DNA from: a phage
Direction: 5' to 3' (one strand)
DNA length: 64,000 nucleotides
Sequence record: PZ583739.1
In this document: in pieces, positions 17,701 to 63,592 of the stretch
Layout: every line of letters starts with the position of its first letter
Numbering within the stretch: the first letter of the stretch is position 1
Made by a program: the position numbers and the translations under genes
Notes under the pieces: model-generated
The model's database searches: none
What the model saw: only the letters and a program-made list of their open reading frames with translations
What the model was told of the DNA's origin: nothing

Positions 17701-17942
17701 TGAATATACACTCGCTGCGCTTCAACCAGACCGTCAGAACCCAATTTCAGTTGGGTCAACTGGTCACCACCTTTTAGAGTAATTTTCGGATTAATGACAA
17801 TCATAAAACTGCGTGCAGATTCCTGAATAACTTGCAAAGTCGCAGCAGGGAATCGCTGTGATACGCGGTTAATCATCTCTTGAGCAAATGCCTTCACTTT
17901 TTCGTGGAACTCTTCAACAGTAATTGGGGTTTCGCTAAGCAT
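17697..17942 (-). CDS. hypothetical protein
   Basis: 81 aa ORF with 4-nt overlap to its neighbour. Confidence 0.45.
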   Translation of the reverse strand: MLSETPITVEEFHEKVKAFAQEMINRVSQRFPAATLQVIQESARSFMIVINPKITLKGGDQLTQLKLGSDGLVEAQRVYIQ

Positions 17943-18484
17943 CAGATTGTCTCCTGTTTTACTTGTTTAACGATAGAAGCTTTTGTGATATCGCCTTTGA
18001 TAATATAGCAATCTTCAACAGTACCACGGTTTAACAGACGCTCTGCTTCGCCTTCCGCATATTCTTTTGACACATGACGAGAGTTAATCTCAATCTTGCC
18101 ATTTTTAACCACAAGCAATTTCCAAACTGATGCAAGTTTTACTGGCACAGGTTCAACTTCTGGCTTAACACCAACTTCTGCCTGGATGAAATAATCAAAT
18201 TCATCAGACAATGGACCAGCAGAAACAAACATTGCCCCATGATGCCTGTTCTGTGTGCCAGATATTTTTGGCAAATCCACAAAATCATTTTCATCAATCA
18301 AACGAATCTCACAAACTTTTTTACCGCCGCTGATGTCATCGGATAAAATCTTAACTTCAAACGGAGTCATACCGATGTATCCAGCAATTTGGTAATTGGC
18401 TGCCCAGCCTCCGGCAATAAACTGTTTTTTGGCATTTTCAGATACAAATTTGTAAAACTTACCTTCTTCAAAGAAATCGCTCAT
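17942..18484 (-). CDS. hypothetical protein
   Basis: 180 aa; ATG preceded by leader catgaggaaaacaaaATG and an early promoter. Confidence 0.5.
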   Translation of the reverse strand: MSDFFEEGKFYKFVSENAKKQFIAGGWAANYQIAGYIGMTPFEVKILSDDISGGKKVCEIRLIDENDFVDLPKISGTQNRHHGAMFVSAGPLSDEFDYFIQAEVGVKPEVEPVPVKLASVWKLLVVKNGKIEINSRHVSKEYAEGEAERLLNRGTVEDCYIIKGDITKASIVKQVKQETI

Positions 18485-20743: not shown

Positions 20744-20777
20744 GGAGCATTATACTCTGCTCCCATGAGTTTGTACA
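20744..20777 (-). promoter_or_regulatory. early promoter embedded in stem-loop (PeSL-like)
   Basis: Minus strand TGTACA, 17 nt, TATAAT; inverted repeat ggagca/tgctcc brackets the -10 box. Confidence 0.5.
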
Positions 20778-20881
20778 CTACTTTCCAAAAAGACCTTGAA
20801 CACATAAAGTGGCCGCAATTCCAAAACAAAAACAGAATGCACCAAATCTAACAATATCCCAACCAAGGCTACAGTTCTCTA

Positions 20882-28272: not shown

Positions 28273-28273
<1 letters not shown>
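28076..28273 (-). CDS. hypothetical protein
   Basis: 65 aa ORF abutting td. Confidence 0.4.
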
Positions 28274-30049
<1,776 letters not shown>

Positions 30050-30059
30050 TATATTTTCC

Positions 30060-30299
30060 TCACGCTTTCTTAGCGACTTTCCAGTCAGCTTTAAATTGGT
30101 CAACATCAGAGTGGTGAATCCAGAAACCAGATGAGCTACCATCTTCATAAAGAGGACAACCATCACACTCATCTTTCCAACCCATCGCACATAAAGTTTC
30201 TTCAGCTTTTTCCAGGGCTTCTGGATTGTTACCCTGGATTGTAAAGTACCATTTGCCTTTAACTTCTGAATCTTTGATGCTCTCACGTTGTAATTTCAT
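30060..30299 (-). CDS. hypothetical protein
   Basis: 79 aa; ATG preceded by conserved leader ...actggagaataaaATG. Confidence 0.5.
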   Translation of the reverse strand: MKLQRESIKDSEVKGKWYFTIQGNNPEALEKAEETLCAMGWKDECDGCPLYEDGSSSGFWIHHSDVDQFKADWKVAKKA

Positions 30300-30340
30300 T
30301 TTATTCTCCAGTGTTTTAGTTGTTAACTCAGTATGGGACC

Positions 30341-30369
30341 ATTATGTCATAGCCCCATTTGGTTGTACA
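30341..30369 (-). promoter_or_regulatory. early promoter (TGTACA / CATAAT) with conserved leader
   Basis: Minus strand TGTACA, 17 nt, CATAAT, then leader ggtcccatactgagttaacaac...ggagaataaaATG. Confidence 0.5.
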
Positions 30370-30376
30370 CTACTTT

Positions 30377-30643
30377 TTAAATTTTATCAAGCCATTTGCC
30401 AAGTTTAATCATTTCCTTGGTGGCTTTTTCCATACTTCTGAACTTAACTAATAAAGGATGAGTATCAACCCCCATAACAAGATTGGTTGCAAGACTGTGT
30501 TCACCAACAAGCCATAATGAGTATGTTTGAACATCCAGACCATAATTTCTGTCTTTATGAACTCGTACACCCATTACTTCAAATTGATCGCTTGCTTTTT
30601 CTACTGCATCCAGGAAATCATCTTTAGTCATGTTAGACCCCAA
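30377..30643 (-). CDS. hypothetical protein
   Basis: 88 aa ORF. Confidence 0.45.
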   Translation of the reverse strand: MGSNMTKDDFLDAVEKASDQFEVMGVRVHKDRNYGLDVQTYSLWLVGEHSLATNLVMGVDTHPLLVKFRSMEKATKEMIKLGKWLDKI

Positions 30644-31007
30644 AAGTTGCTTTAATCAGCGCAATGACTTCTGCGGCATTTTTGTGATTGACTTGCACAT
30701 GAATGGTTTGGGTATCAACATCAGGAGCATCGCCATCAACTTCCAGGAAGTGACGGAATTCCCATTCAGCGAGTTCAAAGTACTCATCAGGCCCACCCAT
30801 ACTATTCAGGATAGTGCCATCTTTCATTTCAACTTTTTCAACAAAATAATCACCTTCAATATAACTCATATCCAGGACTTTGAAGGAATTGCCGTGTTGT
30901 TCCATCAACTTGACCATGCATGAATTATAATTATCATCAGCAATGGCAGAAGTGATGAATTGTTTTTTAGCAGCAGGGTCCAATACGTAAAATTTACCGG
31001 TTTCCAT
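30633..31007 (-). CDS. hypothetical protein (paralog of 31356..31718)
   Basis: 124 aa; shares DEYFELAEWEF / DDYFELSEEEF and start motifs with the 120 aa protein at 31356..31718. Confidence 0.5.
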   Translation of the reverse strand: METGKFYVLDPAAKKQFITSAIADDNYNSCMVKLMEQHGNSFKVLDMSYIEGDYFVEKVEMKDGTILNSMGGPDEYFELAEWEFRHFLEVDGDAPDVDTQTIHVQVNHKNAAEVIALIKATFGV

Positions 31008-31065
31008 TTTAATTTCCTCATTTTTGTTGAGGGAACATGATAATATGTTCCCATTGGTTTGTATA

Positions 31066-31293
31066 CTACGCTTGAATTAAGCCCATATAAAATTCAGCGT
31101 CTTCAGCATGCATACCGTCACAATACTCATCAGCCATAAAGCGAGTAAGGTCTTCAAGAGGACCTTGAACTTCAATTTGAATACTAAAGAATTGCGTATC
31201 TTTAATGTAAGTCATACTCAAAGAAGGATAGCGATTACGGATAACTTCGTAAGTGTATTCAAAATCAACGATATCAATATTAACCTTAGCCAT
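31066..31293 (-). CDS. hypothetical protein
   Basis: 75 aa ORF preceded by the promoter-hairpin at 31322-31352. Confidence 0.45.
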
Positions 31294-31321
31294 TTTATTT
31301 TCCTCATGTAGTTGATAGGTC

Positions 31322-31352
31322 TATAATAACATAATCATAGACCCGTTGTAAA
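31322..31352 (-). promoter_or_regulatory. early promoter (GTTTAC) with stem-loop over the -10 region
   Basis: Minus strand GTTTAC, then hairpin ggtctat...atagacc containing a TATTAT-like -10, then leader ...catgaggaaaataaaATG. Confidence 0.45.
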
Positions 31353-31355
31353 CTG

Positions 31356-31718
31356 CTATTTGAAAGCTTTTTGTAGAAGTTCAATGATTTGGTCGACGTT
31401 ATTAGCATCTACAACACAATTAATAGAAACCGCCCCCGAAGGTGTTTTCGTATAATTGGAGTATTCACGGAAGCAATAAAACTCTTCTTCACTAAGTTCA
31501 AAATAATCATCACCCATGCCATCATCATTATAGATTGCACCATTAGCACAAATGATTTCGGTTACATAATCATAGCCGTCTGCACTTGATATTGATTTAA
31601 CTTCAAACCAACCGCCATTTTCTTGGATGATGTCGACCATACTAGCATTCGATGAACTAATATCAATGAAAGATTTAATACGATGTGGATTGAACTCATA
31701 TTTTTTGCCGATTTCCAT
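31356..31718 (-). CDS. hypothetical protein (paralog of 30633..31007)
   Basis: 120 aa; SD GAGGAAA; paralogous to 30633..31007. Confidence 0.5.
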   Translation of the reverse strand: MEIGKKYEFNPHRIKSFIDISSSNASMVDIIQENGGWFEVKSISSADGYDYVTEIICANGAIYNDDGMGDDYFELSEEEFYCFREYSNYTKTPSGAVSINCVVDANNVDQIIELLQKAFK

Positions 31719-31756
31719 TTTTATTTCCTCAGTTGTTATCAGTAGTTGATGGAATC

Positions 31757-31785
31757 ATTATGCCTTAGCTCAAAGGACTTGTACA
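31757..31785 (-). promoter_or_regulatory. early promoter (TGTACA / CATAAT)
   Basis: Minus strand aaaaagtagTGTACA, 17 nt, CATAATgattcc, then leader caactactgataacaactgaggaaataaaATG. Confidence 0.5.
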
Positions 31786-31800
31786 CTACTTTTTGAAAAT

Positions 31801-31824
31801 AAAAAAGGGACCCGAAGGTCCCCT
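31801..31824 (-). terminator. rho-independent terminator after gene 32
   Basis: gggacc-ttcg-ggtccc hairpin followed by a T-run on the minus strand. Confidence 0.65.
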
Positions 31825-31828
31825 TATA

Positions 31829-32740
31829 TTAAAGGCCAGCCAGAAGGTCGTCAAGACCATCATCAGAAGGCTCTGGAGTGCTTGGAGCGGTCGCAGTGCG
31901 TTCAGACTTAGCAGGTTTGCTGGAAGTGAAGTCTTCCATATCTTTATCAAAATCGTCCAGGTCAGCGCCCAGTTTATCGGCTTGCGCAGCAGCTTTAGAA
32001 GCAGCACCACCGAGAGCAGCTGTACCCATTACTTTAGAGAATTTCTTCTGATTCTCTTCAAGGGATTTAAATGTCAGCAATTCATTCAGGTCAGACATTT
32101 CGTCCCAAAGTTTTTTCTGGAATGCTTCATCATTGATACCAGCGATTTCAGACTGGTTCATGAATTTGGAATCATCGTAATTTTTATAACCGGAAACCAT
32201 TTTAGATTTCAGTACGAAGTTCGCACCTTCAAACGGACAAGTTACATCAATAGCTGTTTCGCCCATGTCAACATCAACTTCAACCATCTGGTTGATTTTG
32301 TCCATGATTTTCTTGCCGAAGCGATATTTGAATACTTGACCTTCGTTAGACGGAACTGCAGGGTCTTTAATGACCAGGATGTTAGCCCAGTAAGAAGTAT
32401 TACGCTTCAGTTTACGATATTCGGATTCGTTTGTATTGTACAGGTCATTCTTATTCATGTACGCACACACAGGGCAGTTTTCATAATCACCGTGAGTAGA
32501 AGTACAGTTTTCAATATACCATTGACCAGCATTTTTAAAGCCGTGGTTAACGAGCTTGATGAATGGAGATGGATTTTCTTCATTCTTAGAAGGTAGGAAA
32601 CGAATAACCGCAGAGCCGACGCCATCAGTATCTTTCAGTTTCCATTCTTTTTTATCGTCAGAAGAGAAACCAGCACCACCTTTCAGAGCGTTAAGGGAAG
32701 CAGCCAGGTCAGCAGGGTTTTTACGTTTAAACATAGACAT
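31829..32740 (-). CDS. 32: single-stranded DNA-binding protein gp32
   Basis: MFKRK...[13 protein letters not shown]...VIRFLPSK...CPVC zinc motif...acidic C-terminus; matches T4 gp32; true start may be the second ATG at 32732-32734. Confidence 0.9.
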
Positions 32741-48027: not shown

Positions 48028-48243
48028 TTATCCCTTAATAGATTTCATATAATTTGATGCATATGATTGTACCACAGTACGTTTCATATGGGAAGTAGAA
48101 ACAATCACATCAATCGCTTGTTTACGTTCTTCTTTAGAGTTTGCCAGTTTGAACATGTCAAAGTAGTAATAACAAGCTTCTTTATTAGATTTGAATTTAG
48201 CGTTAATGTATTCTTGACCTTCATTCTGTTGTGCAGTAAACAT
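48028..48243 (-). CDS. hypothetical protein
   Basis: Track start is TTG; ATG at 48241-48243 preceded by conserved leader ...ctttggagaataaaATG; 71 aa. Confidence 0.45.
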   Translation of the reverse strand: MFTAQQNEGQEYINAKFKSNKEACYYYFDMFKLANSKEERKQAIDVIVSTSHMKRTVVQSYASNYMKSIKG

Positions 48244-48292
48244 TTTATTCTCCAAAGTTTTTGTGATTCATTGTGTAACTCAGTATGGAATC

Positions 48293-48321
48293 ATTATGCA
48301 GCGGGTCAAGGGGATTGTACA
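48293..48321 (-). promoter_or_regulatory. early promoter (TGTACA / CATAAT) with conserved leader
   Basis: Minus strand aaaaagtagTGTACA, 17 nt, CATAATgattccatactgagttacacaatgaatcac...ggagaataaaATG. Confidence 0.5.
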
Positions 48322-48334
48322 CTACTTTTTTTAA

Positions 48335-50232: not shown

Positions 50233-50682
50233 TTAATAGCTCTGCAGAATGAATTTAAAGTTATCAGCAAGCATGCGATTCATTTCTGAAAGGGTCTGAC
50301 AATCAGAATTATGTGAGCGAGTGAACGCCATCGCAATTTGACCTTTACCGTAACCAGTTGTCAGAGGTTTCATTTTAGAAACTGGGACAAACAGGACTTC
50401 ATAGATAACCCCATTGTTCGCCATTGTGCGAGACAGTTGAGAACGCTGTTTGCGGATGTGACTTAATACAGTGTCAAACCCTTGTTGTGAACGTTGGTTA
50501 CCAACATAAAAACGTGCGGCAACAATACGTGATTCACCTTCACCTTTAACCACGAAATAAAAACCTGGTTGAGTGATAGCTTCTTTAGTTGGACGCCCTG
50601 CAACATAATTGCCATTATGGATGTAAGCAACAGTGGTAGCGCCAGCATTCAGTACGTCACGACGGGTCATGTAAGTAGTCAT
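50233..50682 (-). CDS. ndd: nucleoid disruption protein Ndd
   Basis: 149 aa; [37 protein letters not shown]...[20 protein letters not shown]...[15 protein letters not shown] matches T4 Ndd. Confidence 0.8.
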
Positions 50683-50720
50683 ATTAATTTCCTCAGTAAG
50701 TTAAAGTTTTGTGCTCCAGT

Positions 50721-50755
50721 GGGGTCATTATACTCTGACCCCATGAGTTTGTACA
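50721..50755 (-). promoter_or_regulatory. early promoter embedded in stem-loop (PeSL-like), near-identical copy of 62473..62507
   Basis: Minus strand TGTACA, 17 nt, TATAAT; ggggtca/tgacccc inverted repeat brackets the -10; about 45 bp nearly identical to 62465-62510. Confidence 0.55.
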
Positions 50756-51100
50756 CTATTTTTGAAGTTGTTCTAAAATAAATCCGCTGGTGTAAAGGCT
50801 TGCATTATACAGGCGGTCAAGAGATAACGAATCCAATCCATAAGCTTCACGAATTGCATTGATAACACTTTCATAACTTGTATAATAAACATCGCGATAA
50901 TCGCGGTCCATAGTCATGCGGAACTTAATAAATTTGTAGAAACCAGTTTCAGGGTCCTGATAGAATGCAAATTCTGCAGACATCAAATTTTTAAGGTTAA
51001 CAGCCTTTGTACCACCTGAATAACTTAAATCAAATGCTTCTGATACGCTAATCTGTTTAAAGAACATAATGTTGCGATTACCAAAAAATACTTTAGACAT
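50756..51100 (-). CDS. hypothetical protein
   Basis: Track ORF 50756..51124; ATG at 51098-51100 with SD GGAAAA gives 114 aa. Confidence 0.45.
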   Translation of the reverse strand: MSKVFFGNRNIMFFKQISVSEAFDLSYSGGTKAVNLKNLMSAEFAFYQDPETGFYKFIKFRMTMDRDYRDVYYTSYESVINAIREAYGLDSLSLDRLYNASLYTSGFILEQLQK

Positions 51101-52030: not shown

Positions 52031-52186
52031 TCATGCATAACGATTGTATGTATTTTTGCGACACGCGTAAAATTGACGCTCAGTAACTGCAAAACTTTTT
52101 CCGCGCTGTTGCATTAATTTAAAAAATTCAGTAATATCGCCATTAACTTCAAGGTATAAAGTCATTGCATATTGAGCAGGTTTCAT
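52031..52186 (-). CDS. small ORF (51 aa), not in the ORF track
   Basis: ATG at 52184-52186 preceded by conserved leader ...actggagaataaaATG; MKPAQYAMTLYLEVNGD... Confidence 0.35.
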   Translation of the reverse strand: MKPAQYAMTLYLEVNGDITEFFKLMQQRGKSFAVTERQFYACRKNTYNRYA

Positions 52187-52211
52187 TTTATTCTCCAGTC
52201 TGTTTGGTAAC

Positions 52212-52254
52212 TCAGTATGGAATCATTATACAATAGACTCCATACTGATGTACA
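52212..52254 (-). promoter_or_regulatory. early promoter embedded in stem-loop (PeSL-like)
   Basis: Minus strand TGTACA, 18 nt, TATAAT; 10-bp inverted repeat tcagtatgga/tccatactga brackets the -10. Confidence 0.5.
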
Positions 52255-52265
52255 CTACTTTTTAA

Positions 52266-60370: not shown

Positions 60371-60388
60371 AAAGGCCCGAAGGCCTTT
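60368..60388 (-). terminator. rho-independent terminator
   Basis: ggcc-ttcg-ggcc hairpin flanked by T-runs, directly after the stop of 60388..60786. Confidence 0.55.
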
Positions 60389-60786
60389 TATTTGAATCGA
60401 AGCTGCTCTAACATTTTAATAGCTTGTAGACGGCCGGCTTCAGTTTTAACCGTAATAATAACATCGCCGCCAGTAACAACGATATCCTCTTTTGATTCCT
60501 GTTCGGTTATTTCAGAATCACATTCCGGGACTTCTTCAAAATATTTAAATTCATCACCAAAAATAAGACCGGTTCCATTACGACTATGGAAAGAAAATCC
60601 AGTTCCATCGATAGTACTAAATTCCGTAACAACATTTGCTTCCATCTTAGTGACTGAAAACTCTTTGGTAGTAACCAAATCAATGATAGAGGTTCCCTGT
60701 TGGTTCAAAATGCTACCAGGCATACCAACATGTTTAAGGAAGCCATCTAAATCTTTAATGTGATAACTCTTTCCAATTTTAAACAT
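60388..60786 (-). CDS. hypothetical protein
   Basis: 132 aa ORF. Confidence 0.45.
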   Translation of the reverse strand: MFKIGKSYHIKDLDGFLKHVGMPGSILNQQGTSIIDLVTTKEFSVTKMEANVVTEFSTIDGTGFSFHSRNGTGLIFGDEFKYFEEVPECDSEITEQESKEDIVVTGGDVIITVKTEAGRLQAIKMLEQLRFK

Positions 60787-61235: not shown

Positions 61236-61610
61236 TTATTCCTTAAAGTGTGCTTTCAACATCTGGTAAACGGTCCAGGCTTCAGAGTTATTAGAAATGG
61301 TGATTTTAGTCAAAGGGAATTCGCTTGGTTCAAATGCTTCATCAGCGTCTTCGCATTCATCTTCAGTATCGTCATCTTTTTCTTCTTCAAAGAAACGACG
61401 CTCATCTTCCTTTATGAATATTCTCTCTATTCCACCGGTCGAAAATTCTATCCGATATACATCACCACCTTCAATTCCGACTGGTCTAAATCCTTCACCA
61501 TTGATTATAGCATCAGCTATATTATCATTATCAGAGCATAACAAACGAAATCTGCTTTCAGCAACATTATCTTTAAAATAATACCATTTATCAGTTTCAA
61601 ATTTCAACAT
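61236..61610 (-). CDS. hypothetical protein with acidic C-terminal region
   Basis: Track ORF 61236..61733 overlaps its upstream neighbour; ATG at 61608-61610 with SD GGAAGGA gives 124 aa. Confidence 0.45.
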   Translation of the reverse strand: MLKFETDKWYYFKDNVAESRFRLLCSDNDNIADAIINGEGFRPVGIEGGDVYRIEFSTGGIERIFIKEDERRFFEEEKDDDTEDECEDADEAFEPSEFPLTKITISNNSEAWTVYQMLKAHFKE

Positions 61611-61827
61611 GATAAGTCTCCTTCCAAAAATCTGTGCCATCTTCTGATTCTTCGCGGAACAGCGCATAGCTAGGTAGTTCTGCATCTTTATCTGCGTACA
61701 CATAAATGATGTCAGTGGTACAAAGAAATTCATTGATGTTTTTCTTCACAATCACTTTATCACTTTCAGCAGTGTCCCAGAACTCTTCAGCAGTCAGGGA
61801 AGTGGTCACACAATTTTCATTAAACAT
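61597..61827 (-). CDS. hypothetical protein
   Basis: 76 aa ORF. Confidence 0.4.
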   Translation of the reverse strand: MFNENCVTTSLTAEEFWDTAESDKVIVKKNINEFLCTTDIIYVYADKDAELPSYALFREESEDGTDFWKETYHVEI

Positions 61828-62515: not shown

Positions 62516-63268
62516 TTAATTAAAAATTTCAACAACCATGGAACGTGGTACAACAGTAAATTCACCAGCATGGACAACGTTCAGGAGTTCAACACCATCT
62601 TCAATCCACTGGTCTGTTACCCAACCACAAATGGAACTATTAAATGGGCGTTTGATTTGAACTGGTTTGCACAACAAGTCAATAGGGTCACCCAGCTCGC
62701 TAACTTCTTCCAGCAGTACAGATTCACGCGGATAAAGGATAGCTTCAAGATTGTCACCTGATTCATTGACTGCAGTAAATTCAAAGATGCTTTGGTGATT
62801 GTGGTACTTAACTGTTTTAACGGTAAATGGAGCAAATCCAAAAATACCTTTCAGTACCCGCCAACCAGCATTCAATGCATTAGTATTATCAAAATCACCA
62901 TATCCAACAAGTTGATAGGTTTTGTCAACTTTGATAGGAGTTTCTTCAACTTCTTTGAAGAGTTCAATCTCAGCTTCATAAACCGTAATTTTTTCTACTT
63001 CATTTGTATCAAGGCGACGTGCATGTAGAATATATGCTTTATCAAACCAGTTACTTTTTACAAAAGTTTCAACAATAAATTCACCTTCACCTAAAGCATC
63101 AGTCAGAGTATTATACCCAGAAACCATAGCTGCGTTTTGAATAATAGGTTCAATCAGTTGATAAGTTTTGTTAATTTCAATAGTCATATTTTGTTTCTCA
63201 AGTTTTAATGGTTTAATTGGGCGAACATACATACTTACAACATCAAAGTCAATAAATTCTGGTTTCAT
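62516..63268 (-). CDS. hypothetical protein with internal domain repeat (paralog of 61876..62436)
   Basis: 250 aa; two KTYQL-initiated repeats; C-terminal domain homologous to 61876..62436. Confidence 0.5.
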   Translation of the reverse strand: MKPEFIDFDVVSMYVRPIKPLKLEKQNMTIEINKTYQLIEPIIQNAAMVSGYNTLTDALGEGEFIVETFVKSNWFDKAYILHARRLDTNEVEKITVYEAEIELFKEVEETPIKVDKTYQLVGYGDFDNTNALNAGWRVLKGIFGFAPFTVKTVKYHNHQSIFEFTAVNESGDNLEAILYPRESVLLEEVSELGDPIDLLCKPVQIKRPFNSSICGWVTDQWIEDGVELLNVVHAGEFTVVPRSMVVEIFN

Positions 63269-63525
63269 TATGCAACCTTATTGAACATCGCCAGTTGATT
63301 AGGTTGTACAACCATAATTTCACGACGACCTTTTGCGTTTGACACGTTCAGGTAGATGCCTTTGTTCATGTCTGTTTCTTTATCATATACCGCAATTTTA
63401 TTGACAGTAAAGATTTTACCACGAATATTTGTAAATGCACATTCAAACGCTTTGGTCAGACCTGCTTCAGCAGCTTGAAGAGCAGACATTTCATATTGTT
63501 GGCCAATTTCAAAAGAAGTAATCAT
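63268..63525 (-). CDS. hypothetical protein
   Basis: Track start ATG at 63571-63573 lies between the promoter -35 and -10; ATG at 63523-63525 with SD GAGGATAAC gives 85 aa. Confidence 0.4.
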   Translation of the reverse strand: MITSFEIGQQYEMSALQAAEAGLTKAFECAFTNIRGKIFTVNKIAVYDKETDMNKGIYLNVSNAKGRREIMVVQPNQLAMFNKVA

Positions 63526-63556
63526 TTTGTTATCCTCATCAGTAGTTGATGAGATG

Positions 63557-63585
63557 ATTATGTCTCTTTCCATTGGCCTTGTACA
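63557..63585 (-). promoter_or_regulatory. early promoter (TGTACA / CATAAT)
   Basis: Minus strand aaaaagtagTGTACA, 17 nt, CATAATcatctcatcaactactgatgaggataacaaaATG. Confidence 0.5.
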
Positions 63586-63592
63586 CTACTTT

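Follow-up and report, generated by a model that had tools for sequence, protein, structure and literature searches.

The two related genes found between gene 32 and frd in this phage genome are better described as two old members of one family, or as alleles from different lineages, assembled by cassette shuffling and by exchange between genera, than as the products of a duplication. The window, meaning the whole stretch of 64,000 nucleotides that was analysed (record PZ583739.1), is 94-97% identical at the DNA level to the Gaprivervirus phages TH44, vB_EcoM_RZ, EAWsc9 and SP18. This degree of identity points to a T4-like coliphage, and the window can be assigned on this basis to a Gaprivervirus genome. 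The complete explanation, which we consider probable although far from certain, is that of a Gaprivervirus block built of PeSL-type modules, in which diverged FRD2 copies encoding early binders were joined by cassette recombination, including exchange between genera. An earlier note on this DNA had read the pair as consistent with a duplication mediated by the repeated promoter elements.

Every gene around the FRD2 pair lies on the minus strand, in the order g32–B–frd.3–A–X–frd.1–Y–frd–td. The features of the locus are the following:

28273..29133, minus strand: td
29130..29711, minus strand: frd
29708..30049, minus strand: ORF Y
30060..30299, minus strand: frd.1 (DUF5417, 121.7 bits), the next module of the block
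30377..30631, minus strand: ORF X (84 aa, phrog_4423)
30633..31007, minus strand: FRD2 copy A (124 aa, pI 4.5; Pfam FRD2), a Frd.2 of the JS98/Dhakavirus type
31066..31293, minus strand: frd.3 (75 aa; PF05798, 128 bits)
31356..31718, minus strand: FRD2 copy B (120 aa, pI 4.2; Pfam FRD2), a Frd.2 of the T4 type
31804..31825, minus strand: intrinsic terminator hairpin after gene 32 (AAGGGGACCTTCGGGTCCCTTT followed by a T-run; 9-pair stem with 5 GC pairs)
31829..32740, minus strand: gene 32

The terminator hairpin of gene 32 constitutes the upstream boundary of the small-gene block, and the genomic context is that of Pfam FRD2 and of T4 Frd.2, a set of small early genes located between gene 32 and frd. 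The open reading frames of both copies were found on the minus strand at these coordinates, each with an ATG start placed after GAGGAAAnTAAA. ORF X begins 1 nt past the stop codon of copy A, and the same 1-nt spacing from an FRD2 gene was found in all ten loci that contain X (10/10). The absence of a cassette from this gap makes it probable that ORF X shares a transcript with the FRD2 gene that precedes it and is coupled to it in translation.

The relationship between the two copies is clear. They were aligned over their full length by BLASTP with 39/124 identities (31%), 52% positives and E=6e-16, and their Smith-Waterman score of 136 compares with 29±5 (maximum 60) in 2000 shuffles (z=20). 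The similarity noticed in the earlier note is thus significant from end to end. Of the six small proteins encoded in the block, which include Y, frd.1, X and frd.3, no other two form a pair of paralogues, their Smith-Waterman scores not exceeding 33. Both copies match model positions 1-95 of the 96 of Pfam FRD2 (PF03197), with 113.2 bits for copy A and 123 bits for copy B against a gathering cut-off of 29 bits, and both match phrog_622. The start motif and the central motif on which the earlier note had relied were indeed found in both products; they correspond to columns conserved throughout FRD2, namely M-x-x-G-K-x-Y and YFEL-x-E-x-EF-x-x-F in a 32-sequence family alignment. In this same alignment, which comprises both copies, Y7, N24, G35, F38, YFEL-E-x-EF-x-x-F, N107 and F119 (copy B numbering) are invariant or nearly so. 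By these profile and alignment matches, copies A and B are full-length members of the FRD2 family and true relatives of each other. The small gene that separates them is, as had been proposed, unrelated to either: it is frd.3, for which the comparisons described below indicate a mobile single-gene module whose position varies between relatives.

The FRD2 family is old and spread across the Straboviridae, and it appears to be small and confined to phages, with about 35 clusters at 50% identity among 1.84 billion representatives; the named sources are all phages, or a prophage-like E. coli record. Large repetitive proteins (P0063, P0065 and similar) also retrieved by the search of representatives were set aside as spurious, with 3-13 matched stretches of which the best covered about 25-60 residues. 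The pair, its family and its arrangement are already known and ordinary. Indeed, such a pair is already annotated in GenBank for SP18 and JS10 under the names frd.2a and frd.2b, the 'frd.2a' of SP18 being of the copy B type, and the order 32–B–frd.3–A is found in one piece in about 21 database phages.

The earlier note had placed a promoter cassette between the two genes; promoter-like cassettes were found upstream of copy B, frd.3 and copy A, and again upstream of frd.1. These four local cassettes can be aligned with one another:

31719..31797, minus strand: cassette heading copy B (A-rich stretch, GTAGTGTACAA as the -35 box, 17-nt spacer, CATAAT as the -10 box, SD GAGGAAATAAAA; repeat family D1)
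31294..31355, minus strand: cassette upstream of frd.3 (-13.7 kcal/mol, z=-2.45)
31008..31071, minus strand: cassette heading copy A (GTAGTATACAA as the -35 box, SD GAGGAAATTAAA)
30300..30381, minus strand: cassette heading frd.1 (GTAGTGTACAA as the -35 box, stem-loop at 30333-30358 around CATAAT, SD GGAG; reference copy of D1)

In each, a stretch rich in A precedes a -35-like box (GTAGTGTACAA, GTAGTATACAA or CAGTTTACAA), and 17-18 nt separate this box from a -10 box in the form CATAAT, TATTAT or TATCAT, followed by GAGGAAAnTAAA-ATG (GGAG for frd.1). The corresponding hexamers are TGTACA-17-CATAAT for copy B, TTTACA-18-TATTAT for frd.3, TATACA-17-TATCAT for copy A and TGTACA-17-CATAAT for frd.1. 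A stem-loop of the GGG…CCC type was found around the -10 box in three of the four, with stems that differ in sequence and occupy the same position. In the copy A cassette it extends over 31031-31052 (GGGAACAT/ATGTTCCC) and surrounds the -10 (TATTAT/TATCAT), with -11.4 kcal/mol and z=-1.9; the stem-loop of the frd.1 cassette reaches -18.3 kcal/mol (z=-2.3), and the copy B cassette has no strong stem-loop of its own (z=0.03). Further -10 stem-loops are present at about 20.7, 50.7 and 52.2 kb of the window.

All of these cassettes combine σ70-like hexamers 17-18 nt apart with an AT-rich upstream stretch, between a stop codon and the next start. A generic promoter scan of the region returned 11 sites versus 11.6 in shuffled sequence, hence no excess, and the case for promoters therefore rests on the intergenic position of the cassettes, on their recurrence and on the enrichment of their -35 motif. 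The latter, GTAGTRTACAA with at most one mismatch, occurs nine times in the window, always on the minus strand, for 1.8 occurrences expected, and none of 100 shuffles reached nine; most of the nine sites share the build of the cassettes. On these consensus matches, the cassettes are predicted to be early promoters of the σ70 type, and by their organization they correspond to the published PeSL type of element.

A comparison of synteny with related phages, which the earlier note had suggested as a check, revealed that the number of FRD2 copies, their order and the position of frd.3 all vary. Seven distinct gene orders were found in 12 related loci, with A-only, B–A, A–B' and B'…A arrangements among them, B' being a second copy of the B type. 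The orders downstream of gene 32 are given below, a dot standing for a gap of 1-4 nt without a cassette:

Window, RZ, EAWsc9 and TH55 (also DCP80, whose record reaches only X): B–frd.3–A·X–frd.1
SP18: B–A·X–frd.1
VR26, VR5 and Bp7: A·X–frd.3–frd.1
JS10: A·B'·X–frd.3–frd.1
LHE83: B'·X–frd.3–A–frd.1
T4: frd.3–B–frd.1
LF82-8 (Mosigvirus): two divergent FRD2 copies, then frd.1

Two of these relatives allow the junctions to be located precisely. SP18 is devoid of the segment equivalent to 31022..31290: its sequence follows the frd.3 cassette of the window up to GAGGAAAATAAAATG and continues with the coding sequence of copy A, which places the crossover inside GAGGAAAnTAAAATG, within the SD–ATG. In VR26, the crossovers fall in the -35 box at the X|frd.3 junction and in the SD–ATG at the 32|A junction. 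Judged from these junctions, the cassette repeats mediate rearrangement, that is the shuffling, gain and loss of modules, and not duplication. The earlier proposal of a duplication via repeated promoters is accordingly retained only in part, as the repeats do behave as sites of rearrangement in SP18 and VR26; the duplication in place that it implied did not survive the comparisons that follow.

The two copies have distinct affinities. Copy B is 79% identical to T4 Frd.2 in amino acids, and one segment of it is especially close at the DNA level:

31465..31730, minus strand: T4-like segment of copy B (SD and codons 1 to ~85, N-terminal β-barrel domain), ~94% identical to T4 frd.2 in nucleotides

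DNA matches over 31462-31731 are in the range of 92-94%. Past codon ~85, sliding identity to T4 frd.2 falls to 55-75%, and this break coincides with the end of the N-terminal domain. Gene 32, which lies just beside copy B, is only 61% identical to that of T4 in amino acids and ~71% in nucleotides. Read from these identity profiles, copy B is a mosaic of intragenic recombination, with a T4-like 5' part and a diverged remainder. Homologues of copy A are 64-90% identical to it; all that reach 64% belong to Dhakavirus/Gaprivervirus-like phages or to near kin of these, among them VR7 and a single Salmonella phage, and beyond this group identity does not exceed 42%. The modules A, X, frd.3, frd.1 and Y are also close to those of Dhakavirus, with 87-93% nucleotide identity (88-96% in amino acids for JS10), versus 71% for gene 32 and 60-62% in amino acids for frd in comparison with the same phages. 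The Dhakavirus-like modules, together with the T4-like 5' part of copy B, show that the block undergoes horizontal exchange between T4-like phages that infect the same cell.

A neighbour-joining tree of 63 FRD2 members (Kimura distance, midpoint root, bootstrap) is consistent with these affinities. Copy B is grouped with T4 Frd.2 (bootstrap 82), and the B-type clade (bootstrap 97) also contains the second copies of JS10 and LHE83. These B' copies share 55-57% identity with B. Copy A is placed in another clade, across the midpoint root. Bootstrap values are weak for the clade of copy A and for the deep nodes, and only the B-type clade and the grouping of B with T4 were therefore used.

Taken together, the favoured scenario is as follows. 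The small early-gene block between gene 32 and frd is made of modules, each consisting of a PeSL-type cassette and one to a few open reading frames. Two of these modules each bear a divergent FRD2 gene, copy B of the T4 type and copy A of the Dhakavirus/Gaprivervirus type, the latter directly followed by ORF X. These pre-existing diverged members were probably united through homologous recombination at the repeats of the cassettes, in the -35 box and in the SD–ATG, in the course of mixed infections of T4-like phages; Tequatrovirus-like phages would be the donors of the 5' two-thirds of copy B. We infer the direction and the timing of these rearrangements from present-day genomes.

The best surviving alternative is that of an ancient tandem pair, already present in the Tevenvirinae ancestor and then inherited vertically with differential loss, exchange between phages being unimportant. 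It agrees with the age and the Straboviridae-wide distribution of the family, and with the occurrence of B-type and non-B-type copies beside gene 32 in each of the genera Gaprivervirus, Dhakavirus and Mosigvirus. Vertical descent is nevertheless at odds with the excess of similarity observed over the flanking core genes: the N-terminal domain of copy B is ~94% identical to T4 in nucleotides when the flanking core is at about 70%, which calls for a recent exchange, and the A–X–frd.3–frd.1–Y segment is likewise far closer to Dhakavirus than are gene 32 and frd. The order of the modules, moreover, is not conserved. This alternative is consequently held to be unlikely, while retaining some weight. 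A variable number of copies would equally be expected if a tandem pair of ancient date had been lost differentially.

Much less probable is a local duplication of frd.2 by unequal recombination between promoter cassettes, followed by divergence in place. Repeated cassettes do flank both FRD2 genes, a 31-nt stretch over the SD and the first codons (repeat family D2) is 87% identical between A and B, and tandem FRD2 arrays exist elsewhere, as A–B' in JS10, in LF82-8 and with three copies in W70. Copy B, however, is closer to T4 Frd.2 (79% in amino acids, ~94% in nucleotides over the N-terminal domain) than to copy A (31%), an observation that by itself largely refutes the hypothesis. The two copies also fall in separate clades, VR26, VR5 and Bp7 carry A alone at the same place, and the order of the A and B types is reversed in JS10. 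The pair was thus not duplicated in place, and a recent tandem duplication in particular was rejected on the identity between B and T4, on the tree and on the variable gene orders. As for a similarity due to chance or composition, or to one of the two open reading frames not being a real gene, it draws on nothing other than the small size and the 31% identity of the proteins and has a practically negligible probability, given the E-value of 6e-16 and z of 20 that exclude chance, Pfam scores more than 80 bits above the gathering score for both copies, their conservation with dN/dS well below 1, and a confident structural model for each.

The substitution patterns of both copies are those of maintained proteins. 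Compared with close relatives, dN/dS is 0.04-0.08 for copy B and 0.13-0.30 for copy A; by this measure both are under purifying selection, copy A being less constrained. A value of 4.98 obtained for ORF X of DCP80 was disregarded, this open reading frame being delimited differently in that record. AlphaFold2 models built from a 38-sequence alignment reached a pLDDT of 88.9 for copy A and 89.3 for copy B. The order of the elements is the same in both: β1, two helices, β2-β5, a low-confidence stretch at about 91-100 and a C-terminal helix, with strands at residues 6-9, 41-50, 53-61, 66-68 and 87-90 in copy A and 6-9, 37-46, 49-57, 62-64 and 83-85 in copy B. The pLDDT drops to 60 at residues 91-100 in both models, a region read as a linker. 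Each copy is therefore predicted to be a small acidic protein of two domains separated by this flexible linker: at the N-terminus a β-barrel of the SH3/LSm-like kind, into which a helical segment is inserted, and at the C-terminus a short strand-plus-helix unit. [quoted passage not shown]

Fold searches were run with Foldseek on the copy A model, against PDB and BFVD. In BFVD, which holds predicted viral structures, 51 matches were obtained at E≤1e-3, among which GoF of VR7 (E5FIC3, E=1.5e-5) and T4 MotB.1 (P39415, E=3.2e-4). According to these models, copies A and B share the fold of the family that includes GoF and MotB.1, in independent agreement with the work of Kim et al. 2025 (PMC12152347), in which T4 Frd.2, GoF and MotB.1 were united in one family of early proteins with an 'LSm-like fold'. 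Four more remote members of the GoF/MotB.1/Frd.2 group are present elsewhere in the window. The PDB fold search gave no significant match for the copy A model (best E=0.14, with weak Tudor, FeoA and chromo barrels) and, in particular, no significant resemblance to true Sm/LSm proteins, Hfq among them; the PDB sequence search gave no match. No significant clue to function came from NCBIfam, from PADLOC or from the PDB at the level of sequence or fold, and a match of copy B to the RNA polymerase alpha subunit in NCBIfam was dismissed as noise (E=0.055, 12.7 bits for a cut-off of 523).

The GoF(D25Y) mutant alone stabilised an mRNA, wild-type GoF and MotB.1 being without effect, and an amber mutant of T4 frd.2 plated normally (PMC12152347). 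In a CRISPRi-ART survey of T4, frd.2 was the sole gene of unknown function scored as 'Fit' (PMC11879866), a score that contrasts with the normal plating of the amber mutant. With low confidence, we infer that the FRD2 proteins are small early-expressed binders of RNA, or of an RNA-associated or host protein, and that two copies mean two specificities. Expressed early from the σ70-type promoters, they would act as modulators by binding a macromolecule of the host or of the phage, either RNA or a protein associated with it, with a binding specificity of its own for each of the divergent copies. The strong acidity of both proteins (pI 4.2-4.5) disfavours a direct or simple binding of RNA. A more speculative proposal, which we regard as rather doubtful, is that of a modular early effector: the N-terminal barrel and the C-terminal domain of FRD2 proteins would be swapped independently among T4-like genera, as suggested by the domain-boundary chimera of copy B, and the two or three divergent copies retained by a phage, often accompanied by a tightly coupled ORF X, would handle different variants of a host target such as a component of RNA metabolism or defence. 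If true, this would explain why frd.2 is the only fitness-relevant gene of unknown function in the T4 CRISPRi-ART survey.

The discovery value of this locus is small, as a Pfam entry exists, the pair is annotated in relatives and the shuffling of cassettes has been published. Its interest lies in a clean and well-resolved example of the mechanism within a single 2-kb block, with about a dozen close relatives, seven orders, crossovers resolved to the -35 box and to the SD–ATG, and a swap with a T4-like allele at a domain boundary. The term 'duplication' should be replaced by the assembly of divergent members through PeSL-type shuffling and recombination between genera. In addition, the T4 gene of unknown function singled out as 'Fit' is here marked as one that is kept in several divergent copies, which could guide experiments on its target.

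The locus can finally be compared with known systems. Like the two copies described here, T4 Frd.2 (PF03197, phrog_622) is located between gene 32 and frd. T4, however, has a single frd.2 copy downstream of frd.3, whereas in the window frd.3 stands between two copies, one of which, copy B, is chimeric with respect to T4 Frd.2, its N-terminal domain being T4-like and its linker and C-terminal domain diverged. SP18 and JS10 share the two-copy state of the window, annotated there as frd.2a/frd.2b; in SP18 the copies are adjacent instead of being separated by frd.3, and in JS10 they follow the order A–B' instead of B–frd.3–A. The GoF/MotB.1/Frd.2 family is characterized by a bent five-stranded β-sheet barrel, a linker and a variable C-terminal domain, as predicted for both copies. 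As regards the cassettes, the published PeSL stem-loop is mostly found between the -35 and -10 boxes or overlapping the -10, and PeSL crossovers occur between the -10 or the SD and the ATG (Arbiol et al. 2010, PMC2839356). The cassettes of the window resemble these elements by their AT-rich stretch, their σ70-like boxes about 17 nt apart and their GGG…CCC stem-loop over the -10, followed by SD and ATG; they also flank small non-essential open reading frames in a plastic region, with indel junctions located from the -10 to the ATG or in the promoter boxes. The -35 box differs, being mostly GTGTAC/GTATAC in the window versus TTGACA or TTTACW in published PeSLs, the T4/PST consensus being TTTACW–N17–TAYWAT (Comeau et al. 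2014, PMC4122927). The PeSLs were described in RB49/phi1, T4/PST and KVP40/nt-1, and not in Gaprivervirus; promoter and terminator activity as well as mini-circle formation were the subject of experimental work in RB49/phi1 (PMC2839356).

The accessory modules of the block (ORF Y, frd.1, ORF X, frd.3 and copy A, the Dhakavirus/Gaprivervirus-type FRD2 gene) are 87-93% identical in nucleotide sequence to those of Dhakavirus phages, as judged by comparing window positions 29706-31365 with the JS10 (L003) and LHE83 (L013) loci. The flanking core genes, by contrast, are far more divergent from the same phages, with 71% amino acid identity for gene 32 and 60-62% for frd. On these identities, exchange of the whole accessory block between genera postdates the divergence of the core genes.

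The T4-type Frd.2 gene, copy B, was compared at its C-terminal end over window positions 31356-31465 (minus strand). Over the last ~45 nt (31366-31410, minus strand), copy B shares about 87% identity with the B-type copies of JS10 and LHE83 and about 70-77% with T4. Since this 3' end is nearer to JS10 and LHE83, copy B may be a composite of a T4-type N-terminal domain and a Dhakavirus-type C-terminal end. The frd.3 gene of the window (31066-31293, minus strand) shares 96% amino acid identity with the alleles of VR26, VR5 and JS10, in which it is located between ORF X and frd.1, and only 83% with those of EAWsc9 and TH55, despite the same position as in the window. Either independent insertions of frd.3 or an allele replacement at the window's site would account for this pattern.

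Two small ORFs accompany these genes:

30377-30631, minus strand: ORF X, 84 aa, phrog_4423
29708-30049, minus strand: ORF Y, 113 aa, phrog_8592

ORF X, which had no match in a Pfam search, starts exactly 1 nt past an FRD2 stop codon in 10 of the 10 loci having it (spacing compared in the window and in loci L002-L006 and L009-L013). In most loci the upstream gene is copy A; in JS10 and LHE83 it is the B-type copy. This constant spacing suggests that FRD2 and ORF X form a co-transcribed, translationally coupled unit and are possibly functional partners. In the EAWsc9 record, ORF Y is labeled 'type II toxin-antitoxin system PemK/MazF family toxin'. Searches of Pfam, NCBIfam and PADLOC at E<=1 (in Pfam, E<=0.1 for the 113-aa ORF) gave nothing to back this assignment, and the label looks either unsupported or based on structure or remote homology.

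Elsewhere, the window carries four further genes remotely related to the FRD2/GoF/MotB.1 family:

17942-18484, minus strand: remote family relative
60388-60786, minus strand: remote family relative
61236-61733, minus strand: remote family relative
62516-63268, minus strand: remote family relative

Two of them match phrog_622 (E=2e-17 and 3e-29). One also carries a goF-like C-terminus, one has a goF-like N-terminus (phrog_5804/2980), and one is a MotB-like protein whose N-terminal part is weakly FRD2-like. Copies A and B therefore belong to a larger, dispersed gene family.

The early-promoter cassette of the block recurs at other sites in the window:

~20748-20781, minus strand: cassette copy
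48241-48325, minus strand: cassette copy
50680-50759, minus strand: cassette copy
52184-52258, minus strand: cassette copy
63523-63589, minus strand: cassette copy

These are built of AAAAAGTAGTGTACAA, 17 nt and [CT]ATAAT, followed by a Shine-Dalgarno sequence and ATG; in several, a GGG…CCC stem-loop surrounds the -10 element. The cassettes form a genome-wide family in this Gaprivervirus, resembling PeSL, the published promoter-early stem-loop cassette of T4-type phages.

Tandem FRD2 genes are found in other phages as well. Two divergent homologues are adjacent in the Mosigvirus LF82-8 (L008, 2053-2863), and three in Escherichia phage W70 (Vequintavirinae; L007, 2528-3748), an rV5-like phage of a subfamily other than that of the T4-like phages. 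In the tree, one Mosigvirus copy clusters loosely with a Vequintavirinae copy, a grouping that hints at FRD2 transfer between phage families.
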